Assembly: GCA_964541605.1 (NCBI GenBank)
Contig: CAZIQY010000001.1
Coordinates: 41,533 to 105,532, forward strand
Source: an uncultured Syntrophaceae bacterium
GTDB lineage: Bacteria > Desulfobacterota > Syntrophia > Syntrophales > UBA2185
Direction of reading: 5' to 3'
Length of the DNA stretch: 64,000 nt
Below the pieces are notes generated by a model, which was not told the DNA's origin, searched no databases, and worked only from the letters and a program-made list of their open reading frames with translations. The position numbers and the translations under genes were made by a program. Positions 41,452 through 56,834 of the stretch are shown piece after piece. Positions within the stretch are counted from its first letter, which is position 1, and each line of letters begins with the position of its first letter.

Positions 41452-41616
41452 CTCTTGCCCCGGCAACCAATTTTCCCCAGGCAGAATGAAGTTCCTGGAA
41501 AAAAAAAGTGGGCACAGGCCCACTCATCAAGAACACACGATGATTTTCCTGATTTTTTTAACACACAATATTTGTCTTTGCAAGAGAAATTTAAGACTTA
41601 CAAGAGAAGGGGCTTA

Positions 41617-41647
41617 ATAAAAGATTGGAGCGGGCGATGGGAGTCGA
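41617..41647. repeat. attL-like direct repeat: orphan copy of the tRNA-Gly 3' end plus 9 nt
   Basis: ATAAAAGATTGGAGCGGGCGATGGGAGTCGA is identical over 31 nt to 56751-56781. The flanks diverge on both sides. Confidence 0.85.
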
Positions 41648-41806: not shown

Positions 41807-42019
41807 ATGTCTATGAATGACTCGCCGGGTAATGTCCTGACCATAGAAGAACTGGCCATTTACCTGAAGATTTCAAAATCCACCCTTTACAAGCTTGTCC
41901 GTGAAGGCAAAATCCCTTCCCAGAAAGTAGGGCGTCACTGGCGGTTTCGTAAAAAATCCATTGATCGGTGGCTGGAAGAAAACGGCCCTGCGTCCGACTC
42001 CTTACGAGAGAATGATTGA
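41807..42019 (+). CDS. excisionase-family (MerR-like) helix-turn-helix DNA-binding protein
   Basis: 70 aa starting at ATG 41807, preceded by AGAGAGGAG. LTIEELAIYLKISKSTLYKLVREGKIPSQKVGRHWRFRK..ID.WL is the excisionase-type HTH pattern. Its stop overlaps the brxF ATG (TGATG). Confidence 0.75.
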   Translation: MSMNDSPGNVLTIEELAIYLKISKSTLYKLVREGKIPSQKVGRHWRFRKKSIDRWLEENGPASDSLREND

Positions 42020-42492
42020 TGGCAGAATCCCTTGCAGAACAGATTCTTGGTAAGATCGGCAATATCTCTGAGCTTTATCATCGCCTTATGATTGTCGCTG
42101 CCCCGACCGGCGCCGGAAAAACAAGGACACTCCAGGAGGTTCACAAGCAGATAAGTGCACCGCTCATCAATGTGAACCTGGAGTTATCGCGGCGCATGCT
42201 CGATCTCACCGAACGTCAAAGGGCGCTGCAACTTCCCCGTCTCATAGGAGAGATGCTCGATGAGATCAAAGAAAACACGATTCTACTCGACAACATCGAG
42301 ATTATTTTTGATGTTGCTTTAAAACAGGACCCCCTAAGGCTTCTTCAGGGGCTTTCAAGAAACAAAACAATTGTCGTGAGTTGGAACGGTTCGCTTGAAA
42401 ATGATTTTCTTACTTACGCTGTGCCAGGTCACCCGGAATACAGACGTTATCCGACGCGGGGAGGGGACTTGCTGATCGTAGGGCCGGCATGA
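42019..42492 (+). CDS. brxF: BREX type 3 P-loop protein BrxF-like
   Basis: ~157 aa small ATPase with Walker A AAPTGAGKT. Size, motif and position immediately upstream of a BrxC/PglY-type gene match BrxF. Confidence 0.65.
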   Translation: MAESLAEQILGKIGNISELYHRLMIVAAPTGAGKTRTLQEVHKQISAPLINVNLELSRRMLDLTERQRALQLPRLIGEMLDEIKENTILLDNIEIIFDVALKQDPLRLLQGLSRNKTIVVSWNGSLENDFLTYAVPGHPEYRRYPTRGGDLLIVGPA

Positions 42493-42534
42493 ACGGAATA
42501 AATTTTCCCAGAACAGGGGAGGAAGGATGAACCC

Positions 42535-44055
42535 ATGAAATACGGTGATTTAATCCAGTTTGAACCGATCGAATCCGTTGTGCAATTACGGAGCGCTAAT
42601 TCTTCCGCCGCCGCCCGGCAGCTTGTCGAAACCTATGTCATCTCCGTCGAGATGGCTGAAAGGCTAATCGGTCTCGCTATCCCGCAGCTTCAGTTTGACC
42701 AGCCCGCAGACAATAAAGGGATGCTGGTTGTCGGCAATTACGGCACGGGAAAATCCCATCTTCTATCTGTCATCTCCGCCCTGGCGGAGAACGTAGAACT
42801 CGCCTCCCATCTGAGCGACCAATCCGTGGCCAAAGCAGCAAAAAAGATTGCGGGGCGATTCAAGGTTGTCCGGACCGAGATCGGCGCAACGACCATGTCC
42901 CTGCGCGATATTATCATTGCCGAATTGGAAGAGCATTTGGAAGCCATTGGCGTGATTTTTTCCTTCCCACCCACATCCAAAGTATCAGAAAACAAAAGCG
43001 CCTTCGAGGAAATGATGGCGGCGTTCCACCAGAAGTTTCCTGATCTCGGACTGCTCCTGGTCGTGGATGAACTTCTCGATTTCCTCCGGACACGAAAAGA
43101 TCAGGAGCTTATCCTGGATCTCAACTTCCTCAGGGAGATCGGCGAGGTATGCAAGGACCTGCGTTTCCGATTCATCGCCGGTGTTCAGGAAGCGATCTTC
43201 GACAGTCCCCGGTTTTCTTTTGTGTCCGATAGCATCCGCCGGGTAAAGGATCGGTTTGAACAGATTCTGATCGCCCGTAATGATGTCAAATATGTGGTGG
43301 CCGAGCGCCTGCTCAAGAAGACCGGCGACCAGCAGGTTAAAATCCGGGAGTATCTGACGCCCTTCGCCAGGTTCTACGGCCTTATGAATGAGCGTATGGA
43401 CGAGTTTGTCCGCCTGTTTCCCGTGCATCCCGATTATATTGATACGTTCGAGCGGGTCGCGGCGGTGGAAAAACGCGAGGCACTCAAGACCCTGTCCCTC
43501 GCCATGAAGAAACTGCTCAATCAGGACGTCCCGGACGACTGTCCGGGACTTATCGCTTACGATAGCTACTGGATAACCATTAAAGAAAACGCGGCGTTTC
43601 GCGCCATCCCGGAAATCAGGGAGGTCATTGAGTGCAGCGCAAAACTTGAGGGGCTGATCAACAGCAATTACCCGAAAGGCAAAAATAAGGACTTTGCCGG
43701 AAGAATTATCCATGGCCTGAGCCTGCACCGGCTGACCGTCGGCAGCATTGAAACGCCTGTGGGCCTGACATCGGAATCATTGAGGGATTCTCTGTGCCTC
43801 TTTGATCCAAACGTAGCCGATCTTGGCGGAGATCCTGCCGATGATCTGCGTGGAGAAATTGAATCGGCAATACGAGTGATCAGCCAAGCCGTCAATGGTC
43901 AATTCCTGTCGGCAACAGAGACGGACGTCAATGGAAGACTGAGCGGGCAGTTCTATCTCGACGTTCATAAAACCGTGGATTACGCGCACAGGTTCGTAAT
44001 CGCACCGAGAGTCTCGAATCATCGCAGCTTGATCGCTATTATTATGAAGCCCTGA
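42535..44055 (+). CDS. brxC: BrxC/PglY-type (DUF6079-like) large P-loop ATPase, N-terminal fragment (frameshifted gene)
   Basis: 506 aa. N-terminus [18 protein letters not shown] and Walker [10 protein letters not shown]. The last ~22 codons ([23 protein letters not shown]) look out of frame relative to the following ORF. Confidence 0.7.
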
Positions 44056-44063
44056 AGCGGGTC

Positions 44064-46280
44064 ATGGAATGTACTGATTACACCTATGTCACCGGCTACA
44101 AGATCTGGCAGCATGAGATCGAGTGGCTGGAACGGAAGGCCGCACGCCTTGGGTACCTCTTTTTCGGCGCGCCCAATGAGCGATCCACGGCAGTGCCGCC
44201 CCGCGATTTTTATCTTTACTTCCTTCAACCTTTCGAGGCGCCGTCCTTCAAAGATGAGAAGAAGCCGGACGAATTATTCCTTCACCTGAAAAATGACGAT
44301 GAAACATTCCGCACGGCATTACGAGGCTATGCGGCGGCCCTCGATCTCGCCTCTACTGCATCAGGCCATGCCAAAAACACCTATGAATCCAAAGCGACAA
44401 ACTTTCTGAGAGAACTGGTCCAATGGCTCCAGAAGAACATGGCGACGGCCTTCGATGTCACCTGTCAGGGACGGACAAAACCCCTCACCGAATGGGCAAA
44501 GGGAAAGTCGATCCGCGAGCTGTCCGGCATATCGTCCCATGAGCGGATCAATTTTCGCGATATGGTGAACACCGTCGCGGGAATGTGTCTCGACAGCCAT
44601 TTCCGGGATCAGGCACCGGATTACCCCTTCTTTTCGGTGCTCATCACGGGCGCCAACCGCGCCCAGGCGGCACAGGACGCCTTGCGGGCCATTGCCGGCC
44701 AGAACCGCACCAAGCAAGCAACGGCGGTTATGGATGCCTTGGGGCTCCTCGACGGGGAGCGGATTGATCCGTATCAGTCAAAATACGCCCGATATATTCT
44801 CGACAATGCAAAGAAGAAAGGCGCCGGCCAAGTTGTCAATCGGTCTGAACTGTTCCAGGAGGTTCTCGGGGTCGAGTATCTGGCGCCGCAAACGCTGCGA
44901 CTGGAACCGGAATGGGCGGTGGTGGCACTGGCCGCGCTGGTTTATGCCGGAGAGATTGTATTGGCCATTCCCGGCAAGAAGTTCGACGCCACTATCTTAC
45001 CACAAATGGCCGGTACCGGCGTGGAAGAGCTGGCCCAATTCAAACACGTCGAACGCCCTAAAGACTGGAATATCCCGGCGCTCAAAGCACTTTTTGAACT
45101 GTTGGGACTCCCTCCAGGAATGGTTCAACAGATTACCCAAGCGGATGAGATACCGGTTCAGCAAATGCAGAAGACTGTCTCGGAAACGGTCAACCGGTTT
45201 GTCGTCGCCCAGCAGAATTTACATAATGGCCTGTTCTTCTGGGGGCGAAGTCTCCTGTCCGAGGATGAAGTTCAGAAGTTGAAAGCCCGACTGGAAGAAA
45301 CCAAGACATTTCTCGAATCGCTTCAGGCGTACACCACGCCGGGGAAACTGAAGAATTTCCGTTACGATGCCCAGGAGGTAAAGGGCCATCACGAAGGATT
45401 TCAGTCCCTGAAGGAAATTGAATCCCTGCAGGAACTGGCCAATGAGCTCGGGACGGTCGCGTCGTATCTTTCCACAGCGGAAGCGGTTTTGACTACCGGG
45501 CATGAATGGCTCGACAAGGTGAAGTCCGTGCGCGATGAAGTCCTCGGGCAGATCGGCGACCCGGACAAGCGCGGGGCGGCCGCCTTTCGCCAGCAAACCC
45601 AACGCCGGTTGACGGACCTAAAAAAGGCCTATAGCCAGATCTACCTCGCCCACCACAGCAAGGCACGGCTGGGTGTAAAGGATGACAAGCGCAAGGTCCA
45701 GCTCATGGGCGACGAGCGGCTCAAGGTATTACAAAAACTCTCTACTATCAATCTTATGCCGCTCCAGCACCTGACCGATTTCCAGAACCGGCTTGCAGGC
45801 CTGAAAAGTTGCTTCGCCCTCACCGAACAGGAACTCAACGCAGCACCCGTCTGCCCGCACTGCAACTATAAACCGGGATCGGAACCCCAGACGGCGCCCG
45901 CTGCGAAGATGCTCGATGCTTTGGACGACGAGCTTGATAAACTGGTCGAGAATTGGACACAGACCCTTTTGACAAATCTGGAAGACCCGACCACTAAAGG
46001 AGCCTTAAGCCTGCTCAAACCCGAGCCACGCAATCTGGTAGATGGCTTCATAAAAAAAAGAGCCCTGCCGGACAACCTAAACCAGGACTTCATTTTCGCA
46101 CTCAAAGAAATCCTCTCGGGACTTACGCCTGTGTCCATCAAAATCGCTGACCTACGTTCCGCGCTCCTTGCGGGCGGCTCACCGGTCACCCCGGCGGAAA
46201 TGAGAAAGCGGTTCGAAGACTACCTGGATCATCTCATTAAGGGTAAAGAGCCAGGTAAGGTACGGATTGTATTGGAGTAA
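44064..46280 (+). CDS. brxC: BrxC/PglY-type ATPase, C-terminal fragment (frame open from 43971)
   Basis: 738 aa. Upstream of the listed Met, the same frame reads ...[41 protein letters not shown], which continues naturally from fragment 1. The two fragments together make ~1240 aa, as expected for BrxC/PglY. Confidence 0.7.
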
Positions 46281-46318
46281 TTTCCAAGTATGCATACGAA
46301 TGGACAAGGAACGATGGA

Positions 46319-47935
46319 ATGAAGATCGCAGAACTCAAAAAACTGCTGAAAGCTGGTGAATGGAACGATATCGAGTTCAAGGAAGCTCGCACCGCCGTTT
46401 CCAAATCCGCGTTTGAGACCGTATCCGCCTTCGCCAACACCCACGGCGGCTGGATCGTGTTCGGCGTCTCCCAGCATGGCGAAGAGTTTAAAGCCACCGG
46501 CGTTGAGATGCCGGACAAGGTGTAGGGCGATTTCCTGTCTGTTCTTCATGCCGACGCCAAGGTCAATCATGACGTTCAGGTAACGGAGAAACGGTACGAT
46601 TTTGATGGTGCAACTGTTCTTGCCTTTCACATTGCTGAAAATCCACGCACCCGGAAACCGGTCTATCTGGACGGCGACATCCGGCGGACCTTCCTGCGCA
46701 AGGGCAGCGGGGACTACAAAGCCCAGATGACTGACATCGAGCGCATGTTACGCGACGCCACCGCCGACCGGTGGGATAGCCAGCCGTTTGACCGTGTGCT
46801 GCTCAAAGAGGCGTTTCATCCGAGCAGCCTGCGGTGGTATCGGGACCGGTTCCATCAGGTCAATGCCGGCTTCGATCCTAAACAACCCGATCAGGAGTTT
46901 CTCTATCACTGGGGCTATCTGCTCCGGGATGGAAAACGTTTCATCCCGATCCGTGGCGCCATCATGCTCTTTGGGTCTCCCTTGGCGGTCCATCAGCTCA
47001 TTCCGCGACCGACGCTGGATTTTCAGTTTTTAGGCTATGCCACCGACGAGCCCATGCCCGAGACGCGCTGGATTGACCGGATCGTATGCGAGGAGAACAT
47101 CATCCAGGCCTGGGATCAACTGGTCAGCAAGTACAAGTTCTTCATGCCCAAACCTTTTAAAGATATTGATCCGGTTACCCTGGGCCGCCGAGACGATCCC
47201 CCGGGGTTTCGCGTGTTCCGCGAAGCGGCTGTCAACCTGCTGACCCATCAGGACTATGGCGATCATTCCCGCAAGGCTGTCATAAAATTCTTCCGCGACG
47301 GCATCCAGTTCTGGAATCCCGGCGACGTATTCGGGGACGATTCCCGGCTGCTTGAACCCGGAGAAAAAGAGGTCCGCAACCCGGTCATTGCCACGGCCAT
47401 GCGCCGGATAGCCATGTGCGAGCAGGCGGGCACGGGCATGCGCATGATGCGCGAAGCATGGCAGGCCCTCGGACACCCGGCGCCTGTTTACAAGAACGAC
47501 CGTGCATGGAAAGCATTCGATCTCTTCATCCCGGAACTGGATAAAGAAGTGGATATGGCCTCGGATCTGATGAAGGCCATGTTCGGGAAGACACCGACCC
47601 CTTCAGGCGGCACGGATACCGAACAAGTCGAAGCCCATGAGGAGGCCCAAGTCAAGGCCCAAGAGGCCCAAGTCGAAGCCCAAGTTGAACTCCTTAAGTG
47701 GCAGCATGACATCCTGACATCTTGTTCTTCCGGCGAGAAGACAGGCAAGGAATTCTTGGAAATTGCCGGCTATAGCAGCCGCACTGGGAACTTCAAGAAG
47801 GGTCTGCAAAGACTGCTTGATTATAAGCTTCTTGAATTGACCGTTCCCGACAAACCCAACAGCCGTCTGCAGAAATACCGGCTCACCGACAAGGGCCGTC
47901 GGCTTCTGGTCAAGGCGCGAGGAGACGGCGTTTGA
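46319..47935 (+). pseudogene. AlbA_2 (Schlafen-like) domain / ATPase-like / winged-helix protein interrupted by an in-frame TAG
   Basis: The ORFs 46319-46525 and 46727-47935 are in one frame. The only interruption is TAG at 46523-46525, and the sequence continues ...PDKV*GDFLSVLHADAKVNHDV.... The N-terminus ELKKLL..GE...IEFKE fits the AlbA_2 pattern. The C-terminus has PDKPNSRLQKYRLT, typical of this regulator family. Confidence 0.7.
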
Positions 47936-47999
47936 CCAAGTTTGTGACCAACTACTGCCAACTTGGTTATTGAACAAATCGAAGGAGAAGGAGTATCTA

Positions 48000-50021
48000 A
48001 TGAGACTTACATACCTTCGCATACAAAATTTCCGGGCATGTAAAGACATTACCTTAGAAATTGGCGAGATGCATGCGCTCGTCGGCGCCAATAATGCCGG
48101 CAAATCCGCAATGCTTCGGGCCTTGGATTTCCTATTCAACCCGAGTACAAAGTCCTTGAATGAAGAATCTTTCTGGAACAAAGACACCAGCCTGGAAATC
48201 CGAGTGGAAGCCATTTTTACTGACCTTACAGACAAAGAAAAAGAAGCGTTGGGCGCTTATCTGAAGGCGGATAAGACATTCCACATGGCCCGCTCCGCAA
48301 GAGTGGGCGTTAAGAGCGGCGAATCGGAGACCGATTCAGGACAGGACGAAGAAAAGATTGGAATTGGACAACATTACAAAAAACCCATTCCTGAGCCGGA
48401 ATGGCTCCAGGAATCCAACATCAACGGAAATAACATCAAGGAATGGTGGAAAAACAAAGACCAATTAGCCGTAGGCGGCGTAAGTTTCGCGGATTTTCTC
48501 AATGTAACAATCAAGGCACCGACTGTGGGAGATTGGAAAGAAAAGGCCAAAGAATTTATCACGAATCATGCAGACAAGATTCCGATGCAAGACGCATGGA
48601 CCGATAATCCGAAGGGCTATGCCAATGTCCTAAAGGGGACATTGCCCTTTTTCGTTCTCGTTCCTGCGGTCAGGGATGTGACCGAAGAATCCAAGGGAAC
48701 CAAAAGCAGCCCCTTCGGCAAACTGCTGTACGCAATCCTTGACACGATTACTCAGGAAAAGAGGGTCAAGATCGAAGGCATTCTCGGAGATGTTGCTAAA
48801 CAGATGAACCGCGCCGGCGGGGAAGAGCGTGTTCCGTTGATTGCCGACACGGAGAGGCAACTCAACACGCTGCTGAACGATTTCTTTACCGGATGCGACC
48901 TCGAGATCGAGTTTGAAACCCCGACGCTGGAAGTCCTTCTCAGTGCGCCAAAACTTTTCGTGGACGACGGCTTCAGGAATGCCGTCGAGAACAAGGGGCA
49001 CGGCCTGCAAAGGGCAGTCATCTTCACTATTCTGCGGCGCTATGCGGAACACATGACATCCGCGCCCGATGGGAAGAAGCGCAATCTCATTCTCGCGGTC
49101 GAGGAACCGGAACTCTATATGCATCCGCAAGCACAACGAATTATCCGACAAGTGTTTCGTAAGATCGCCGAGGGAGGAGACCAGGTAATCTTCTCAACCC
49201 ATTCGTCACTACTCGTGGATGTTGCCTATTTTGATGAGATCATTCGGATGGAAATCAGTGTCGAGAAAACAGACGGCAAGAAAACGATGATAAGCAGGGC
49301 ATGGCAGTTGCCCATGTCGAAGATGGTTAAGGACCTTGAGACCAGATTTCCGGCTCTCAAAGGAAAAGCCACACCTGAATCCATGCGTGATCGGTACTCC
49401 CATGCTTACAATCCCCGGCGCAACGAAGGATTTTTCGCTTCAAAAATCATCCTTGCTGAGGGTCTGACCGAGGAATACAGTTTGCCTATTTACGCCGATG
49501 CGCTTCCGGATTGTTCCTTTGACCCTCAAGGCATCAGCGTTGTTGAATGCGGCGGTAAAGGAGCGATGGATCGCCTCTTCAGGATATTCAACGAACTCCA
49601 TATCCCATGTTATATTCTCTTTGATTATGACAACGGTAACCCAGACAAGAACATCATTGAAAAATCCAAAGAACTCCTCTCCCTGGTTGGTGAAATTCAG
49701 GATGCCCCACAATCGCTTTTAGTCACCGATTGTGTAGCCTGCTTCCCAAAGAAATGGGAATCTGATCTGAAAAGCGAAATCCCGGACATTGAAACCTTAA
49801 CAGCCGAAGCCAGAAAGGTACTTGGGCTGAGTGACGACACTGGCAAACCGCTGATTGCCCGTTATATCGCCAGAAAAATCACATCCCGCAGTCCGGCAGT
49901 TGTTCCACCAAGTCTCAAGACAATTATTGAAAAGGCCGTGGCCGTGACATGGAAACAGAGTTGCCTCAAGACCGGGGCATGCCAGCCCATTTCTGAAGTG
50001 CAGGGGAAAAATGATGGATGA
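48000..50021 (+). CDS. OLD-family ATP-dependent nuclease (ABC-type ATPase + Toprim), no partner helicase
   Basis: The start is taken at ATG 48000 (GAAGGAGAAGGAG upstream): MRLTYLRIQNFRA. Walker A GANNAGKS, signature-like GHGLQR, Walker B ILAVEEPELYMHPQ. C-terminal Toprim with ILAEGLTEE ... VVECGGK ... LFDYDNG. Its stop overlaps the pglXI start by 11 nt. Confidence 0.8.
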   Translation: MRLTYLRIQNFRACKDITLEIGEMHALVGANNAGKSAMLRALDFLFNPSTKSLNEESFWNKDTSLEIRVEAIFTDLTDKEKEALGAYLKADKTFHMARSARVGVKSGESETDSGQDEEKIGIGQHYKKPIPEPEWLQESNINGNNIKEWWKNKDQLAVGGVSFADFLNVTIKAPTVGDWKEKAKEFITNHADKIPMQDAWTDNPKGYANVLKGTLPFFVLVPAVRDVTEESKGTKSSPFGKLLYAILDTITQEKRVKIEGILGDVAKQMNRAGGEERVPLIADTERQLNTLLNDFFTGCDLEIEFETPTLEVLLSAPKLFVDDGFRNAVENKGHGLQRAVIFTILRRYAEHMTSAPDGKKRNLILAVEEPELYMHPQAQRIIRQVFRKIAEGGDQVIFSTHSSLLVDVAYFDEIIRMEISVEKTDGKKTMISRAWQLPMSKMVKDLETRFPALKGKATPESMRDRYSHAYNPRRNEGFFASKIILAEGLTEEYSLPIYADALPDCSFDPQGISVVECGGKGAMDRLFRIFNELHIPCYILFDYDNGNPDKNIIEKSKELLSLVGEIQDAPQSLLVTDCVACFPKKWESDLKSEIPDIETLTAEARKVLGLSDDTGKPLIARYIARKITSRSPAVVPPSLKTIIEKAVAVTWKQSCLKTGACQPISEVQGKNDG

Positions 50022-52806
50022 CCTTTTCGGTAGTCCAGAAACAAAAGCCAAATTAGCAAGGCGGATCGAATGTCTCGGCATGACATTCACGAATGACGAG
50101 AAGCGGCGGAAGCACTTCCTGGAGAAACTGAGTGAAAAGCTCAAGTACCCCGATTTTCGCAAGATCGAGGGATTCCCCATCGGCTCGGAAGAGGACATCC
50201 TGGCGCTCTCCGACCCGCCATACTACACAGCCTGCCCGAATCCCTTCATCGCGGATTTCATCAAGCACTATGGCAAGCCCTTCGACCCGAGCATACCTTA
50301 CAGCCGCGAGCCGTTCGCCGCGGATGTGAGCGAGGGTAAGAACGACCCGATCTACAATGCACACTCCTACCATACCAAGGTGCCTCACAAGGCCATCATG
50401 CGGTACATACTCCATTACACCGAGCCGGGTGATGTGGTCTTCGATGGATTTTGTGGGACCGGAATGGCAGGAGTAGCCGCGCAGCTTTGCGGTGACCGAA
50501 GTGCAATTGCATCTCTCGGCTATACACTAACTGAGGATGGAAGCATCATAGATGAGGACAAGCAGACGATCTCTCAATGTGGGGCCCGAGTTCCTATCCT
50601 GAACGACCTCTCGCCCGCTGCAACATTAATAGCCGCTGGTTACAATTTGACAACGGATTCGAAGGGGTTCGCACAATTTGCCAGGAAGCTTCTGGACAAA
50701 TTCAACCGCGAATACGGATGGATGTATGAGACGCGGGATCACAAGACAGGCGCGACTTGTCCGATTGACTTCACCATCTGGTCGGACATCTTTTCCTGTC
50801 CCCATTGCGCCGGAGAATTGGAGTTCTGGGACTTGGCCTATGATGAGGCATCAGGAACGATTGAAGATCAGCCCACTTGTCCACATTGCTCGGCTGAGGT
50901 TTCCAAGCGCGATCTCGTCAGACTCACAACCACCTACTACGACAAGGCGTTAAAAGCGACCCGGACACGTCAGGTCTTGCGTCCGGTAGAGATTCGATAC
51001 CAGCACCAGGGAGCGAAGAAGAGCAAGAAACCCGACAAGGACGATTTCGCCTCCCTTGAGAAAATCGAAAGACTGATCGAGTCCATCGAGTACCCGACAG
51101 AATTGATGATGTTTGTGCCGGAGGGAGAGGAATGGGGTGACCTCTATCGCGGATATCACGAGGGGATCAGCCGAGCACACGATTTTCATCTGCCGCGCCA
51201 GCTCGTCGCGTTTTCTCTGTTGTGGCAAATGGCTGATGACCTGCCCAAGGAGGAGATGAAGCGGCTCTGGCGGTTTACGTTGCAAGGCATTGTTGTGAGC
51301 TTCACGCGCAGGAACCGGTTTCGCGAGAAGGCATACTCTCAAGTAAACACGAACCTCAGTGGCACACTGTATATCGGCTCAAGAGTCAGTGAACCGAGCC
51401 CAACCTATGTATTGACCGGCAAGATCAAGAGATTTGGCAATGCGATTCCAAAGGGTGGCTCTGCGGTAGCTATAACCACGCAGTCTCTCGCCTCCGTGCT
51501 GATCCCGGATAGCTCAGTTGATTACGTGTTCATCGATCCGCCCTTCGGCGACAACTTGCCCTACGCCGAGCTGAATTTCCTGTGGGAGGCTTGGCTCCGC
51601 GTATTCACGAACTCGGGGCAGGATACCGTTGTCAGCGGCAAGCAGCGGAAAGATCTGGCTGTCTACACAAACATGATGACGGATTGCCTGAAACAGGTCT
51701 ATCGCGTCCTCAAGCCAGGCCGGTGGGTTACGGTTGAGTTTCACAATTCCAAGAACGCTGTTTGGACCGCGATACAGGAGGCTATGGGGCGCGCCGGTTT
51801 CATCATCGCTGATGTCAGTGTGCTCGATAAGGGGATGAAGACCAAGAAGCAGATGCATGCCAAGGCAGTCGACAAGGACCTTGTAATCTCCGCCTACAAA
51901 CCGAACGGCGGTCTCGAAAAGCGATTCCAACTCCAGGCTGGAACCGAAGAAGGGGTTTGGGATTTCATTCGAACCCATCTGCATCAGCTTCCGGTTTTCC
52001 TCAAGAAGGATGGGCGTGCTCAGGTCATCGCAGAAAGACAGCAGGTTCTGTTGTTTGACAGGATGGTCGCCTTCCACGTCCAGCGCGGCGTAACCGTTCC
52101 TCTGTCCGCGGCGGAGTTCTATGCCGGACTTGTCCAGCGGTTCTCCGAGCGGGATGGGATGTACTTCCTCCCCGAGCAGGTGGCCGAGTACGACAAGAAG
52201 CGCATGACCGTCCGAGAGGTTCTGCAGATCCTGCTCTTTGTCACTGACGAGTCCTCCGCGATTCAGTGGCTTCGACAGCAGCTCCTGAGAAAGCCCCAAA
52301 CGGCAGGTGAGTTGAAGCCCCAGTTCATGCAGGAAATCGGAGGATGGCAGAAAACCGAGAAGCTGCTCGAACTCGATGAACTGCTTGATCAGAACTTCCT
52401 ACGTTACGATGGCAAGGGCGAAGTGCCGAACCAGATTCACAGCTATCTGTCCACCAACTTCAAGGAGCTGCGCAACCTGCCGAAGGACGACGAAGGTCTC
52501 CGCGGCAAAGGCAAGGACCGATGGTACGTGCCAGACCCGAACAAGGCCGGCGACCTGGAGAAGATGCGCGAGAGGTCGCTGCTCAAAGAGTTCGAGGACT
52601 ATCGGACATCCAGCCAGAAGCGCCTGAAGGTGTTCCGCCTCGAGGCCGTCCGCGCTGGCTTCAAAAAGGCATGGCAGGACAAAACGGAAGAGGGTTACCG
52701 CACTATCATCGAGGTAGCAAAGAAGATCCCGGAAAACGTACTCCAAGAAGACCCAAAACTTCTAATGTGGTACGACCAAGCGCTCACCCGCGCGAGGGAG
52801 GAATGA
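50011..52806 (+). CDS. pglXI: BREX type 3 DNA methyltransferase PglXI-like (N6_N4_Mtase family)
   Basis: 931 aa. DPPY (SDPPYYTACPNPF) followed by the AdoMet motif VFDGFCGTGMAG, a CxxC...CxxC insert, and a second catalytic-type FIDPPFG. It belongs to the ParB-less N6/N4 methylase class used by type 3 BREX rather than the PglX class. Confidence 0.8.
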   Translation: MMDDLFGSPETKAKLARRIECLGMTFTNDEKRRKHFLEKLSEKLKYPDFRKIEGFPIGSEEDILALSDPPYYTACPNPFIADFIKHYGKPFDPSIPYSREPFAADVSEGKNDPIYNAHSYHTKVPHKAIMRYILHYTEPGDVVFDGFCGTGMAGVAAQLCGDRSAIASLGYTLTEDGSIIDEDKQTISQCGARVPILNDLSPAATLIAAGYNLTTDSKGFAQFARKLLDKFNREYGWMYETRDHKTGATCPIDFTIWSDIFSCPHCAGELEFWDLAYDEASGTIEDQPTCPHCSAEVSKRDLVRLTTTYYDKALKATRTRQVLRPVEIRYQHQGAKKSKKPDKDDFASLEKIERLIESIEYPTELMMFVPEGEEWGDLYRGYHEGISRAHDFHLPRQLVAFSLLWQMADDLPKEEMKRLWRFTLQGIVVSFTRRNRFREKAYSQVNTNLSGTLYIGSRVSEPSPTYVLTGKIKRFGNAIPKGGSAVAITTQSLASVLIPDSSVDYVFIDPPFGDNLPYAELNFLWEAWLRVFTNSGQDTVVSGKQRKDLAVYTNMMTDCLKQVYRVLKPGRWVTVEFHNSKNAVWTAIQEAMGRAGFIIADVSVLDKGMKTKKQMHAKAVDKDLVISAYKPNGGLEKRFQLQAGTEEGVWDFIRTHLHQLPVFLKKDGRAQVIAERQQVLLFDRMVAFHVQRGVTVPLSAAEFYAGLVQRFSERDGMYFLPEQVAEYDKKRMTVREVLQILLFVTDESSAIQWLRQQLLRKPQTAGELKPQFMQEIGGWQKTEKLLELDELLDQNFLRYDGKGEVPNQIHSYLSTNFKELRNLPKDDEGLRGKGKDRWYVPDPNKAGDLEKMRERSLLKEFEDYRTSSQKRLKVFRLEAVRAGFKKAWQDKTEEGYRTIIEVAKKIPENVLQEDPKLLMWYDQALTRAREE

Positions 52807-52809
52807 GCG

Positions 52810-53769
52810 ATGCCGAATCGAACCGTGCAGCCTGTCCACTTTGAGGACTTCGATGGCCATCAGTTTGAGCGCCTCGTATTCGCTTATTTGCTCAGAACGG
52901 ACAACTGGCTGTCACTTGAGTGGTATGGGCAGACAGGAAGCGATTCAGGAAGAGACATCTGGGGCATCAGGGAACGGGACGGGCATCCCCAAGGGCAGAA
53001 GGTTTGTATCCAATGTGCCAATCAGAAGTCACTTACGTACATGAAAGTACAGGAAGATTTTGAGAAGATTCTTAGCGGGCCTAACGGGAAGCCGGATACT
53101 TTTATTGTCGTTGCTGGCGGAACGGTGTCGGCAACGCTGAGAGATAAAACCAAGAAACTTTGTGAAAAGAAACAGGTCTATACGAGCGAGATTTGGTCCG
53201 GGAAGGAATTTGAAGAGCGGCTAAGAGCAAAGGCTGAGTCTTTGTTAAAACGGTTCATTGGAGGAGAGGAGTTTCCGGACGTTCCAGCTGACATTCGTGA
53301 CTTCGCGGAAGCGATCACTCCCCAGTCCGATGATGAGATTCTCGCTTTGATGGCCGGGCTCTTTGACAGGCCCGCCTTTTCTACCCCGTTCCATCAAGAG
53401 AGTTCAATTCCAGCTTTCAAAAAAGCGATCACCGACACGATTGAAGCTCTGAACACCGGAATACACCGCCTTAGAGATGGAACAGAAATCCGTCGCATTC
53501 CAAGCAGGCACGCAATCCAATCAGTGGAGACCAAGAGGACATTGTCACATATTGAACGAATGCTCAGTGAACTCCGTGCCAAATACGATGAAAGCATCAA
53601 GACTGGAGAAATCCGCCCGTGTGGCTGCAATGTTCCAGACTGCCCTGTCTTTTTTGTTTCCTCTCGCGCAGCTAACGAAATAGACCGCCTGCGTGAAGAA
53701 ATACTGGGAACTTTTCGCAGGCTATATCCTGCTTTCGATGTAAGGCTTGGTTGGAGGCACTGGTGCTAA
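52810..53769 (+). CDS. uncharacterised protein with N-terminal Mrr-like PD-(D/E)xK nuclease signature
   Basis: 319 aa. FE.LV...L followed by GSDSGRDIWG and VCIQCANQK resembles the Mrr_cat pattern (D.G.D ... Q.K). The C-terminal ~150 aa have no motif I recognise. Only a 3-nt gap separates it from pglXI. Confidence 0.45.
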   Translation: MPNRTVQPVHFEDFDGHQFERLVFAYLLRTDNWLSLEWYGQTGSDSGRDIWGIRERDGHPQGQKVCIQCANQKSLTYMKVQEDFEKILSGPNGKPDTFIVVAGGTVSATLRDKTKKLCEKKQVYTSEIWSGKEFEERLRAKAESLLKRFIGGEEFPDVPADIRDFAEAITPQSDDEILALMAGLFDRPAFSTPFHQESSIPAFKKAITDTIEALNTGIHRLRDGTEIRRIPSRHAIQSVETKRTLSHIERMLSELRAKYDESIKTGEIRPCGCNVPDCPVFFVSSRAANEIDRLREEILGTFRRLYPAFDVRLGWRHWC

Positions 53770-53975
53770 TGGGCGATTGGTACTACAGCCCGGACCACGG
53801 GCAGCTATGTCAGGTCATCGACTCTCAGACTCTCTGGAGTGAGACGACCTGCCGGGTGTGGCTGCCATGGTGCAAACGAAATACCAAGCACCTGAAGGGC
53901 AGCCGCATTGAGGCGGCCTGCCCCGGACTCGAGAATGCTTGGCAGAAGGGCGGCAGCCATGAGCAACTGGCGTGA
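53769..53975 (+). CDS. small hypothetical ORF (68 aa), translationally coupled on both sides
   Basis: The ATG overlaps the upstream stop (TAATG), and the 3' end overlaps the pglZ start by 17 nt. MGDWYYSPDHGQLCQVIDSQTLWSETTCRVWLP looks like a small beta (SH3/Tudor-like) module. The remainder is basic and low-complexity. Confidence 0.35.
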   Translation: MGDWYYSPDHGQLCQVIDSQTLWSETTCRVWLPWCKRNTKHLKGSRIEAACPGLENAWQKGGSHEQLA

Positions 53976-55965
53976 TCAGATTCTCAAGGAATTTGCACCG
54001 CAAGTTTCTCGGCTTACCCTGGTGGCAGACCCGGATGGGCTGCTGTTGGAGGAAGGTATACTGGAGGGCATCCGGGAACGGGGATTCGAGCTCATTCCTT
54101 TTGAAGACCCTGTCGCTTTTCGCTATGCCTACGAATCCGGATTCCGTTCGCGATGGGATTGCGGAGAACAAGAACAGACCGACCTTGTGGTAGTGTTGCG
54201 ATCCCAGACCAGCGACCTTAGCACATTGCCCTTCGATTTGCTTCAGGCGGGTCGCAAGCTGTCTTTCAATCTTGGCGACATCTTTCCCACTCTCAGTTAT
54301 CCCATCATTACTGCCCTGGATCGCGGCGATCTTGACGCCTTGTACAAAGCCCAGAGACGCCATATGCCCGGTCAGCTCGGCGATAACGCCACCAAGGAGT
54401 TCGTCCTTAGGCATGTTTTTGAAATCGCGGTGGAACTCATCAAGGAGCCATCCGATCTGCTGAGGGTACTCCTGCGCCGTCACTACCGCGGACAGTGTAT
54501 ACCCGGGGTTCTCGACGACCGCTTTATCCAGATTCTCCGGCAAACTGACAGCTTCGCCGGGTGGCCTCTGGAGAGAATCGTTCCGGATCGGGAAGCTTTT
54601 TTGTCCTTCCTACAAGAACGCTGGCCATTGTTCCTGAACCGGGGGCATGTTCAGGACACCCAGACCGGTGTAGAAGAATATGCCGGATACATCTTCCAGA
54701 TACCGGGACCGCCGGATCTGCCGTTTGATCACCATGATGTCCGCGTTTACATGGACACCTTCTTTCTTGAAGGTCTTCTGCACCCGGTCACCCACGAACA
54801 GGCGGGAATGATCGCCAAGACCTGGGCCGGTATCGGTGTCCGAACCGACTTTGCCGGAGATCGAACGCGTCGTCTGGAAAAGCTGCTTGCCGGCATCCGC
54901 ACTGCTATTCCGGCTGAGGATGTTCGCTATGGAGAGTGGTTATTATTTGCCCGCGGTTGGGCGGAGTTGATCGTCATTGCCCATGAGGCGCCCGCTGATA
55001 TCAAAACCGAGCAAGGAATCAAAGAAATTCAGACCCACGTTGACCATGCCTTCACTTCCTGGTTGACCCGGAGGTTCGCCGGGCTGATCAACCTGCCTCC
55101 TGCGCCGCCGGTCATGCTCCATCATCTGCCCCGATACCTAGCGCGCCAGGTGATTGAGGACAAAACGTTCAAGGCCGCTCTCTTGGTGATTGACGGGCTG
55201 GCCTTGGACCAGTGGATCGTGGTGCGTAAAATAATTGCGTCCCAGCGGCCCATGATCCGCTTCCGGGAAAACGTTGTATTTGCCTGGGTTCCGACACTCA
55301 CCTCGGTCTCCCGGCAAGCCCTCTTCGCCGGCAAGCCGCCGATTTTCTTTCCGAACAGCATCCTGACGACCGAGAAGGAATCTGCCTTGTGGTCACAGTT
55401 CTGGGCAGATCAAGGACTGACGCCGAACGAGATCGCCTACGCCAAGGGATTTGGTGACGGAAGCTTGGCCCATCTCGAAGAGATGCTTACTCATCCCAGA
55501 ATCAGGGTGGCGGGGCTGGTCATAGACAAGGTTGATAGAATCATGCACGGCATGGAACTGGGCACGGCGGGCATGCACAACCAGGCGCGTCAATGGGCGG
55601 AACAGTCTTACCTGGCCTCTCTTCTTGACCTGCTCCTCGACCGGGGATTCCTGGTTTTTCTGACATCAGATCACGGAAACATTGAAGCAGAAGGTTGTGG
55701 ACGTCCCTCGGAAGGGGCAGTCGCCGACCTGCGCGGCGAACGGGTCCGCATCTATTCCGATCCGCTTCTGAGGAAAAAGGTCGGAGATCGATTTCCGGAC
55801 GCGGTGGAATGGCCGCCCATTGGGTTGCCGAATGATTATCTACCCTTACTGGCACCCTCTCGAAAAGCGTTCGTTCGTGAAAAAGAACGTCTCGTCAGTC
55901 ACGGTGGGATATCCATAGAGGAAGTCATCGTTCCTCTTGTTCAAATAGAGAAGAAGTCCGTATGA
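53959..55965 (+). CDS. pglZ: BREX alkaline-phosphatase-superfamily protein PglZ
   Basis: The start is taken at MSNWRDQILKEF (53959). N-terminus L.LV.DPDGLLLEE.IL..I...GFELI.FEDPVAFRY.YE. PglZ domain with VIDGLALDQW and LTSDHGNIEA. Confidence 0.88.
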   Translation: MSNWRDQILKEFAPQVSRLTLVADPDGLLLEEGILEGIRERGFELIPFEDPVAFRYAYESGFRSRWDCGEQEQTDLVVVLRSQTSDLSTLPFDLLQAGRKLSFNLGDIFPTLSYPIITALDRGDLDALYKAQRRHMPGQLGDNATKEFVLRHVFEIAVELIKEPSDLLRVLLRRHYRGQCIPGVLDDRFIQILRQTDSFAGWPLERIVPDREAFLSFLQERWPLFLNRGHVQDTQTGVEEYAGYIFQIPGPPDLPFDHHDVRVYMDTFFLEGLLHPVTHEQAGMIAKTWAGIGVRTDFAGDRTRRLEKLLAGIRTAIPAEDVRYGEWLLFARGWAELIVIAHEAPADIKTEQGIKEIQTHVDHAFTSWLTRRFAGLINLPPAPPVMLHHLPRYLARQVIEDKTFKAALLVIDGLALDQWIVVRKIIASQRPMIRFRENVVFAWVPTLTSVSRQALFAGKPPIFFPNSILTTEKESALWSQFWADQGLTPNEIAYAKGFGDGSLAHLEEMLTHPRIRVAGLVIDKVDRIMHGMELGTAGMHNQARQWAEQSYLASLLDLLLDRGFLVFLTSDHGNIEAEGCGRPSEGAVADLRGERVRIYSDPLLRKKVGDRFPDAVEWPPIGLPNDYLPLLAPSRKAFVREKERLVSHGGISIEEVIVPLVQIEKKSV

Positions 55966-56720
55966 AACCCAAGAGTCGGATACAGCAGATCGGCATTGAC
56001 AGGATCGTTCGCCTGGAATGGTTGGAACGAACGGCTCAACTTGCTTTGGCCGTCAATCAGCCAAGCACAGTCAAGCAAAGCATGTTGGAAATTTTAGCGA
56101 CCAGTTTTCCAACATCCAACCCATCTGTCCGGGGGTCACTTGCCAAAACGGTAACTATTTTGATGAATGTCTGGTTATCCGGACCAAAGGAAATTGCCGA
56201 TTTGAGGAAAGTCGGATTGGAGTTGCTGCGCATAAAGTCGGGCGGAGATCGTCTGGCGATACATTGGGCTATGCTTATGGCAACTTATCCCTTCTGGGGC
56301 GCTGTAGCAGGCCAGGCAGGACGGCTGCTGAGGCTTCAGGAAACCATCACCGCGGAACAGGTTCAGCGCCGCATCTGCGAACAGTACGGCAAGCGGGAAT
56401 CCGTTTTCAGAAGGGTTCGTTACGTCCTCAGATCTTTTATTGCCTGGGGGGTGCTGCAGGAAACCGAAACAAAAGGCATCTATCGTCGTGGGTTGTCCTT
56501 ATCTATTGACGATCCCCAACTTATCGCATGGGTGATTGAGGCTGCCCTTCATGCGAACCCCAACGGCTCGACAAGATTCACAGACCTTCTGGAGAGCACA
56601 AGCCTATTCCCGTTTCGTCTTGTGACGATTTCCGCGGAACAACTGACCGCAACATCACCCCGCCTGGATCTCTTTCGTCACGGCATGGATGAAGTCCTCG
56701 TAATGTTGCGTAAAAAGTAA
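55962..56720 (+). CDS. BrxA-like (DUF1819-like) terminal BREX protein
   Basis: 252 aa helical protein. Its ATG overlaps the pglZ stop (ATGA). The assignment rests mainly on its position as the last gene of a type 3 locus. I cannot verify the sequence-level similarity. Confidence 0.45.
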   Translation: MKPKSRIQQIGIDRIVRLEWLERTAQLALAVNQPSTVKQSMLEILATSFPTSNPSVRGSLAKTVTILMNVWLSGPKEIADLRKVGLELLRIKSGGDRLAIHWAMLMATYPFWGAVAGQAGRLLRLQETITAEQVQRRICEQYGKRESVFRRVRYVLRSFIAWGVLQETETKGIYRRGLSLSIDDPQLIAWVIEAALHANPNGSTRFTDLLESTSLFPFRLVTISAEQLTATSPRLDLFRHGMDEVLVMLRKK

Positions 56721-56750
56721 AATATTTAAGAATAATCTCTGGGAGAATTG

Positions 56751-56781
56751 ATAAAAGATTGGAGCGGGCGATGGGAGTCGA
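56751..56781. repeat. attR-like direct repeat (tRNA-Gly 3' 22 nt plus 9 nt downstream)
   Basis: Identical 31-mer to 41617-41647. It overlaps the T-arm, acceptor stem and CCA of the intact tRNA. Confidence 0.85.
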
Positions 56782-56834
56782 ACCCACGACGTCCAGCTTG
56801 GGAAGCTGACATTCTACCGCTGAATTACGCCCGC
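56760..56834 (-). tRNA. tRNA-Gly (anticodon CCC)
   Basis: The minus strand reads GCGGGCGTAATTCAGCGGTAGAATGTCAGCTTCCCAAGCTGGACGTCGTGGGTTCGACTCCCATCGCCCGCTCCA. I folded it by hand: 7-bp acceptor stem, D arm ATTC/GAAT, anticodon stem TCAGC/GCTGG with loop TTCCCAA, T arm GTGGG/CCCAT with TTCGACT, and an encoded CCA. Confidence 0.93.

Follow-up and report, generated by a model that had tools for sequence, protein, structure and literature searches.

We analyzed a 64,000-nt window from an uncultured Syntrophaceae bacterium (contig CAZIQY010000001.1 of assembly GCA_964541605.1; all coordinates are those of the window), whose + strand carries a tightly packed gene array between 41.8 and 56.7 kb with brief or overlapping junctions. 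The gene content supports the assignment of this locus as a type 3 bacteriophage exclusion (BREX) operon that has no working BrxHII but does carry a helix-turn-helix (HTH) leader gene and three extra defense-type genes. Judging from comparisons with related loci, we consider it quite probable that the array represents an island of type 3 BREX whose two usual slots hold passenger defense genes, and that in this strain the core of the system has decayed. The open reading frames (ORFs) and gene remnants of the operon are the following, with E values given for profile matches unless bits are stated:

41807 to 42019, + strand: HTH_17 leader gene (excisionase/AlpA-type HTH), 70 aa; Pfam HTH_17 4e-20.
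42019 to 42492, + strand: brxF, 157 aa, apparently intact; NCBIfam NF033453 (BREX_3_BrxF) 1.3e-53, PADLOC BrxF 1.4e-70.
42535 to 46280, + strand: brxC pseudogene (DUF6079 type), with a 1-nt deletion between 43984 and 43985.
46319 to 47935, + strand: pseudogene for a protein with AlbA_2/Schlafen, HATPase_c_4 and winged HTH (wHTH; Fic-like_C) domains, with a CAG>TAG change at 46523 to 46525.
46319 to 46525, + strand: ORF for the N-terminal fragment of the AlbA_2 gene, 68 aa; SLFN_AlbA_2 6.5e-11.
46727 to 47935, + strand: ORF for the remainder of the AlbA_2 gene; HATPase_c_4 and Fic-like_C wHTH.
48000 to 50021, + strand: OLD-family nuclease gene, ABC ATPase and TOPRIM in a single chain, 673 aa, intact; Pfam AAA_15 3.3e-39, OLD-like_TOPRIM 2.6e-19.
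50011 to 52806, + strand: pglXI (BrxXI), N6_N4-class methyltransferase gene, 931 aa, intact; PADLOC PglXI 1325.9 bits.
52810 to 53769, + strand: gene for a cargo protein with a predicted Mrr/MspJI-like PD-(D/E)xK fold, 319 aa, intact; AlphaFold2 model and Foldseek, weak Pfam Mrr_cat.
53769 to 53975, + strand: brxHII relic, a 68-codon ORF overlapping the pglZ start; tblastn and blastn matches to intact brxHII.
53959 to 55965, + strand: pglZ (BREX-3 type), 668 aa, intact; NCBIfam NF033449 (BREX_PglZ_3) 1.5e-252.
55962 to 56720, + strand: brxA (type 3 form), 252 aa, intact, the terminal gene; PADLOC BrxA PDLC02444 1.9e-92.

The assignment to type 3 comes from searches of the window proteins with profile hidden Markov models (HMMs) of Pfam, NCBIfam and PADLOC. 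The classification of Goldfarb et al. from 2015 reportedly lists brxF, brxC/pglY, pglXI, brxHII, pglZ and brxA for type 3, and five of these six core genes were found in the canonical order with strong matches to type 3-specific models. BrxF, which we take to be a small P-loop/iSTAND protein specific to type 3, scored 180.7 bits against NF033453 (cut-off 50), and its PADLOC match spans the full profile. PglZ scored 839.5 bits against NF033449 (cut-off 250) and was also matched by PADLOC PglZ (6.9e-302) and Pfam PglZ (3.9e-22); its start at 53959 is the one used in the gene calls of another assembly of the locus (L084, see below). The match of PglXI covers positions 5–918 of the 919 in the PADLOC profile, and that of BrxA covers positions 3–250 of the 251 in PDLC02444; BrxA had no match in Pfam or NCBIfam. 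NCBIfam is without models naming type 3 BrxC, PglXI or BrxA, and these calls come from Pfam DUF6079 and PADLOC, the generic NCBIfam BREX_BrxC model giving a weak match under its cut-off. An earlier reading of the letters and translations (hereafter the sequence-only reading) had recognized BrxF, PglXI, PglZ and BrxA by eye, together with the leading HTH gene and the tight junctions of overlaps or short gaps; the NCBIfam, PADLOC and Pfam scores agree with it on the genes and the coordinates on the junctions, and brxF, brxC, pglXI and pglZ were all assigned in the HMM searches which it had suggested. The operon would be transcribed as one unit, as its gene spacing suggests. A scan for promoters and terminators within it found 8 promoter-like sites (8.7 expected) and 22 terminator-like sites (18.1 expected).

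For comparison we used a set of loci labeled L001 upward, which includes 80 GTDB species-level type 3 loci (L004–L083), ENA ERZ27245614 (L084), JGI 3300010319 (L085), Desulforudis sp. 1088 (L095) and Desulforhabdus sp. TSK (L096). Two loci with 91% DNA identity to the window, L091 and L090, served as reference for mapping the lesions described below.

The operon is a discrete, integrase-less genomic island of 15,134 bp at the 3′ end of a tRNA-Gly(CCC) gene. Its boundaries are marked by three features:

41614 to 41647, no strand: left 34-nt direct repeat (att-like), 97% identical to the right copy.
56748 to 56781, no strand: right 34-nt direct repeat, consisting of the 3′ 22 nt of tRNA-Gly(CCC) and 12 nt downstream.
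56760 to 56834, − strand: tRNA-Gly(CCC), the integration target, called by ARAGORN; its 3′ end is directly adjacent to the island.

The spacing of the repeats gives the island size, and the tRNA gene lies 40 nt past brxA. In the relative L094, which is ~95% identical on both flanks, we found the empty site: position 41647 is joined to 56748 with one copy of the repeat and no island, and the order hisD – tRNA-Gly – rimP is contiguous. The GC content is 0.52–0.56 in the island and 0.46–0.50 in its flanks. The repeat formed with the tRNA 3′ end, the abutment on the tRNA, the empty site and the atypical composition are all features of tRNA-targeted islands. Unlike such islands, the 15.1 kb contain no mobility gene: Pfam and profile scans of every ORF between the repeats detected no integrase domain, and the sole candidate is the HTH_17 gene with its Xis/AlpA-type fold. 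This gene has a ribosome-binding site and an ATG start, and its stop overlaps the brxF start (TGATG). Because an HTH_17 gene precedes brxF in 17 of 55 unrelated type 3 loci (and is directly upstream also in L003, L091 and L096), a role as the leader or regulator usual for type 3 BREX is more likely than one as an island excisionase.

Two core genes of the operon are broken. The first is brxHII, which the sequence-only reading had reported as missing. There is indeed no functional gene, but a 68-codon relic remains at 53769–53975. The relic begins at the stop codon of the Mrr-like gene (TAATG overlap), and its first ~35 codons correspond to the BrxHII N-terminus, GDWYYSPDHGQLCQVIDSQTLWSETTCRVWLP, of which residues ~4–35 are kept. 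Identity of the relic to intact BrxHII proteins is 78–88% (tblastn E values from 2e-17 to 1e-20), the best being that of L031 (88%, 1e-20). The other end of the relic (…KGGSHE) is a decayed form of the BrxHII C-terminus, which normally overlaps the pglZ start, and blastn matches to L031, L001 and L004 were confined to the two ends of brxHII. Because only these two ends are retained, the alignments indicate that ~2.7 kb of brxHII is deleted. A tblastn search of the 64-kb window for BrxHII found the relic only.

Loss of this gene is frequent among type 3 loci. Of the 54 loci covering the whole stretch from pglXI to pglZ, 36 have an intact BrxHII and 18 lack it, in agreement with a recent survey that gives its presence as 77% of type 3 systems (PMC12839542). 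Three helicase-less loci (L036, L041 and L076) have no cargo at all, with pglXI abutting pglZ. From the gene orders, BrxHII loss is common and derived, and is not a replacement by nucleases. We also observed in-frame excision of brxHII in several lineages with at least three different junctions (the window, L007:15725–15965, L037:6470–6740 and L016:18900–19120). The resulting mini-ORFs have 50–90 codons, in which the N-terminal Tudor start is fused to the C-terminal tail, and their 3′ ends still overlap the start of pglZ. The junction WLP|QVRN, with CTGCC microhomology, is common to the window and L007, and the junctions of L016 and L037 differ. Such mini-ORFs may have been selected to keep translational coupling into pglZ.

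The second broken core gene is brxC. The sequence-only reading had described a BrxC/PglY ATPase of ~1240 aa; the protein is an unambiguous BrxC/DUF6079 homologue, but it is not encoded by one gene. A 1-nt deletion splits brxC into two ORFs in different frames, 42535–44055 and 44064–46280, encoding 506 aa and 738 aa, with an internal Met as the start of the second. Pfam DUF6079 aligns with the first ORF over positions 1–479 (E = 9e-234) and with the second over positions 505–1238 (E = 6e-286), and PADLOC BrxC matches as well. Homologues of BrxC are uninterrupted, and in L091 the gene is intact (1248 aa). At the deletion site L091 and L090 read TACGAAGCACAG and the window reads TACG-CGCACAG; the missing nucleotide lies outside any homopolymer and adjoins a substitution. 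With the gene split at 43984/43985, the locus does not encode the intact DUF6079-type BrxC that marks a type 3 system. In L090 we noticed that brxC has acquired a nonsense codon independently, by a GAA>TAA change (L090:1450–1610, corresponding to ~44060 in the window), ~25 codons downstream of the frameshift site of the window. By this comparison, brxC was inactivated at least twice, in the window and in L090.

Deletion of brxC in the type 1 BREX of E. coli abolishes both protection and methylation (PMC6326788). Because brxC is frameshifted here and type 1 brxC is needed for both functions, by analogy BREX exclusion is most likely lost in this strain and BREX methylation is probably lost as well.

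A third lesion affects a cargo gene. The two ORFs of the AlbA_2 gene lie in one frame with a single in-frame TAG between them, where L091 and L090 have CAG, and the only AlbA_2 domain match of the gene sits in the 68-aa N-terminal fragment. Intact forms have 534–538 aa: the gene at the same position in L090/L091 encodes 538 aa, and the representative of the 90% cluster has 534 aa. The statement of the sequence-only reading that the locus adds a 68-aa ORF did not hold, because the window has two ORFs of this length, 46319–46525 and 53769–53975, and both are fragments of larger genes. The lesions probably differ in age. Since brxC and the AlbA_2 gene are both intact in the 91% identical L091, where the order is HTH – brxF – brxC – AlbA_2 (538 aa) – OLD – pglXI, their lesions postdate the split from this relative.

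The window comes from a metagenome-assembled contig, and single-base indels and substitutions are classic types of error. We therefore considered that the lesions might be sequencing or assembly artifacts, or variants within the population, and that the real operon might be intact except for the helicase. This is highly improbable. L084 and L085 derive from separate sample accessions and match the window with 100% identity along 12,801 bp and 8,829 bp, respectively, and each carries every lesion within its own span. The exact broken ORFs are recorded on 3–4 contigs, one of them a 110-kb contig of a metagenome-assembled genome with a NusA cluster labeled Deltaproteobacteria. Moreover, the brxC deletion with its adjacent substitution is not in a homopolymer, the loss of brxHII is a deletion of ~2.7 kb and no base error, and L090 has its own nonsense codon in brxC.

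Type 2 Pgl/BREX is an established case of phase variation, which involves a G-tract in Streptomyces pglX, and the brxC gene was hit independently in L090. The frameshift could on these grounds be read as a reversible switch, the system being OFF and not decaying. We regard this as barely credible, because TACG-CGCACAG contains no simple-sequence tract, the L090 lesion is a GAA>TAA substitution and not a repeat slip, and the three identical assemblies carry the OFF allele only; in addition, the TAG codon of the AlbA_2 gene and the brxHII deletion are irreversible. Programmed frameshifting at the brxC lesion was likewise rejected, there being no repeat tract or slippery site.

The extra genes lie on the same strand as the core. 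The sequence-only reading had placed three additional genes between brxC and pglZ; their identities as AlbA_2, OLD and Mrr-like genes stand, but they do not form one block. The AlbA_2 and OLD genes occupy the space between brxC and pglXI (slot 1), and the Mrr-like gene follows pglXI and precedes the brxHII relic and pglZ (slot 2). Slot 1 is occupied in 41 of 59 loci, and AlbA_2, HATPase_c_4 and wHTH domains are carried by 20 of the 57 ORFs found there; six others encode YhcG/DUF1016 PD-(D/E)xK nucleases, and HerA, SIR2, AAA_15/21 and further families occur as well. Slot 2, after pglXI, contains OLD-type ABC ATPases (AAA_15/AAA_21; 13–17 ORFs), DUF3696 proteins (10 ORFs), GmrSD, PIN, UvrD, RNA ligase, kinases and further families. 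The close relatives L001/L002 and L003, with 87–88% PglXI identity, have the canonical gene set, in which the SNF2-type BrxHII is intact, and carry other cargo in these two slots. In L031 an Mrr-like gene (85% identity) has the same position as in the window, in the order pglXI – Mrr-like – intact brxHII – pglZ. The trio of AlbA_2, OLD and Mrr-like genes in one locus was not found among the 80 species-level type 3 loci, and the AlbA_2/OLD pair recurs only in the close metagenomic relatives L090–L092 and L102. All extra genes of the window are flanked on both sides by core genes, and their families also occur outside BREX. Because the same families co-occur with intact BrxHII and sit in non-BREX loci, gene order indicates that the extra genes are interchangeable, separable cargo in two standard slots. 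The locus thus differs from canonical type 3 BREX in its brxHII relic, its frameshifted brxC and the cargo in both slots, and each of these states has type 3 precedents.

Genes of this kind have been described in BREX loci before. According to Rakesh & Krishnan (NAR 2026; PMC12839542), "auxiliary and backup nuclease effectors" are nested in BREX loci; PD-(D/E)xK restriction endonucleases are the most prevalent embedded class, at least 1242 taxa have OLD-ABC/TOPRIM modules, and Schlafen–histidine kinase (HisK)–wHTH genes are also among the embedded effectors. These are the same classes as those in the window, namely OLD-ABC/TOPRIM, PD-(D/E)xK restriction endonuclease and Schlafen with a minimal histidine kinase and wHTH. 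Payne et al. (2024; 10.1101/2024.01.29.577857) also treat genes embedded in BREX and suggest anti-restriction proteins as their trigger. BrxU/GmrSD in the pEFER BREX is an experimentally studied embedded nuclease that complements BREX (PMC8565348, as cited in PMC12839542 and 10.1101/2024.01.29.577857). PglZ itself is reported as a nuclease in type 1 BREX, according to an entry in the reference list of PMC12839542, and the view that BREX is non-cleaving is for this reason no longer settled.

From that view the sequence-only reading had proposed an uncharacterized hybrid of methylation and cleavage. Spelled out, this would be a functional helicase-less type 3 variant in which the OLD and Mrr-like proteins replace BrxHII and add cleavage to BREX methylation. 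The 18 of 54 type 3 loci without BrxHII and the independent in-frame brxHII deletions would fit such a variant, as would the overlap of the OLD stop with the pglXI start in the window, L095 and L096. So would the distribution of AlbA_2 cargo in the brxC–pglXI slot: where BrxHII is absent, 9 of 16 loci have this cargo, against 6 of 30 where it is present (Fisher p = 0.02, with no correction for phylogeny). Nevertheless, we consider the variant very unlikely. Its proposed nucleases co-occur with intact BrxHII, the Mrr-like protein in L031 and OLD in L095 and L096; L036, L041 and L076 are helicase-less and cargo-free; and most members of the OLD subfamily, as well as other Mrr-like members, are found outside BREX-3. 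In the window itself both brxC and the AlbA_2 gene are broken, and embedded nucleases are already published. The sequence-only reading had itself named a known subtype as the alternative to a new variant, and the comparison of gene orders across the 80 loci largely comes out on the side of the known subtype.

A broader but unlikely proposal is that type 3 BREX can also work without its helicase, assisted by effectors. The in-frame brxHII relics, the separate brxC nonsense codon of L090, the excess of AlbA_2 cargo where BrxHII is absent and the loss of identity over the PglXI TRD leave it a small probability. If it were true, embedded effectors of the Schlafen/AlbA_2, OLD and Mrr-like kinds, in which loci with excised brxHII would be enriched, could supply the restriction step that is normally supported by the Swi2/Snf2 helicase, and the window would belong to such a helicase-independent lineage and have been inactivated recently.

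The OLD protein, whose Walker A motif reads GANNAGKS, has its AAA_15 domain at residues 11–415 and its OLD-like_TOPRIM domain at residues 488–554, and it is matched by PADLOC Old (1.2e-83). It would act as an ATP-driven TOPRIM nuclease, as its domains suggest. With an N-terminal ABC ATPase and a C-terminal TOPRIM in one polypeptide and no adjacent UvrD-type helicase gene, it resembles single-chain OLD proteins such as phage P2 Old and 6p74; its neighbors are the AlbA_2 gene and pglXI, and no partner helicase gene is present. The closest solved structure is 6p74, of the OLD family, but the similarity is only ~2e-23, and the subfamily of the window is distinguished by its typical position just upstream of an N6_N4 methyltransferase gene. 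The 3′ end of the OLD gene overlaps the pglXI start by 11 nt. An identical OLD protein is present in other assemblies, and the subfamily shows 76–92% aa identity across several phyla. In L095 and L096 a member with 81% identity lies immediately upstream of pglXI, and BrxHII is intact in both. Among 52 metagenome loci with this subfamily, only 6 of the 39 informative cases have PglXI as the next gene downstream, and 9 of 28 have BrxC upstream. A BREX-3-specific OLD subfamily was rejected, as 33 of the 39 loci have no PglXI directly downstream. Elsewhere its genes precede a pair of N6_N4 methyltransferase and ResIII genes, or lie amid reverse-transcriptase, SbcCD-like and DUF2130 genes. We observed that the subfamily is found repeatedly just 5′ of an N6_N4-class methyltransferase gene, often overlapping it (L095, L096, L107, L125, L126, L144 and L116), and that this adjacency spans type 3 BREX (pglXI) and type III-like mod/res loci.

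The Mrr-like protein gave a weak sequence signal, with Pfam Mrr_cat at 0.0019 (below the gathering score) and PADLOC PDC-M58A and LmuA at 6e-8 and 5.5e-6, respectively; a profile search against PDB sequences returned noise only. Its AlphaFold2 model has a pLDDT of 87.7, and Foldseek matched the N-terminal domain to the nuclease domains of MspJI, Cap4, EcoT38I and Avs4 with probabilities of 0.9–1.0. This predicted PD-(D/E)xK fold is shared with Mrr/MspJI-type (type IV) nucleases, Cap4 and Avs4. Unlike MspJI-type enzymes, the protein has no recognizable modified-base reader domain, and the (E/Q)xK element is not conserved (QCAN, with K79 downstream). In the family alignment the aspartates D45 and D49 never vary; the residues at the (E/Q)xK position are Q/L/A-C-A/S/T-N, and the following helix carries K79, which is likewise invariant. 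The C-terminal domain is helical, Cys-rich and very conserved (LFDRPAFYTPF…RLRDGTEIRRIPSRH…CGC…C), and the Foldseek search gave no structural match to it. We collected 925 homologues of this unannotated family; besides BREX-3, its members are nested in a type I restriction-modification locus (L086:10001–10957) and a DUF499/DUF1156 locus (L088:10001–10984). Nuclease activity is plausible from the structural model, and the protein may be a PD-(D/E)xK nuclease or a DNA sensor.

The AlbA_2 gene in its intact form is predicted to encode a Schlafen-type RNase, and a homologue from its 90% cluster is found beside cas3/cse1 (CRISPR-Cas). Within the gene, at 47630–47683, we noticed three imperfect 21-nt tandem copies (GAGGCCCAAGTCAAGGCCCAA); in translation they form an (EAQV/K)n linker that joins the HATPase_c_4 domain to the wHTH domain.

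The motifs DPPY, FxGxG and DPPF of PglXI are invariant in an alignment of its homologues, which number in the thousands, and its identity to PglXI of canonical type 3 loci is 87–89%. A variable internal target recognition domain (TRD) extends over about 50483–51703; such an internal TRD insert of PglXI is described in PMC12839542. Between the window and L090/L091, DNA identity is 91% from the HTH gene to pglXI codon ~158, is gone over the TRD (50483–51703) and is 77% thereafter. This pattern looks like a swap by recombination of the methyltransferase specificity domain and everything downstream.

Together, these comparisons suggest the following course for a decaying type 3 BREX island. The ancestral layout would have been HTH_17 – brxF – brxC – [AlbA_2-HisK-wHTH, OLD] – pglXI – [Mrr-like] – brxHII – pglZ – brxA, because L091 and L031 keep their respective intact portions in the same order. 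By analogy with type 1 BREX, the core would have methylated host DNA, with the internal TRD of PglXI determining the motif, and excluded phage DNA lacking this methylation. The slot genes would be self-contained passenger defense genes that move between methyltransferase-based loci, and most likely act as independent or back-up effectors. In the present state brxHII is reduced to its 68-codon relic, brxC is frameshifted and the AlbA_2 gene is interrupted by an amber stop; the modules that consist of one intact gene each, namely OLD, the Mrr-like gene and perhaps pglXI, may still work.

Several points weigh against this interpretation. The loss of function is extrapolated solely from type 1 BREX, and the two BrxC halves of 506 aa and 738 aa could conceivably still associate. 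The placement of OLD genes upstream of, or overlapping, methyltransferase genes hints at a functional coupling beyond hitch-hiking. The nuclease motif of the Mrr-like protein, as aligned, is non-canonical. Finally, given the frequency of helicase-less loci and the open mini-ORFs in L007, L016 and L037, the lack of BrxHII may be tolerated or selected and not simply a sign of decay.

As a defense system the locus is ordinary, since type 3 BREX and nested nuclease genes have already been described and this copy is partly dead. It is of value as a worked example of three processes: the movement of a whole BREX operon in a tRNA island that has no integrase and whose empty site is available in a relative; the reshuffling of two fixed type 3 cargo slots among closely related loci, along with an apparent exchange of the methyltransferase TRD; and the decay of an island by helicase excision, brxC frameshift and cargo nonsense mutation. 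The recurrent in-frame loss of brxHII, the placement of OLD upstream of methyltransferases and the unannotated family with a PD-(D/E)xK fold and a Cys-rich domain are possible guides for experiments on type 3 BREX.

In the rest of the 64-kb window no second defense system was seen. The remaining genes are housekeeping genes and include carB, nusA-infB, pnp, hisD and genes for a type IV pilus. Just outside the island, at the 5′ edge of rimP, we noticed a GC-rich hairpin (GAGTGGGCCTGTGCCCACT) next to an A/T run at 41500–41525, and this hairpin is kept in L094.

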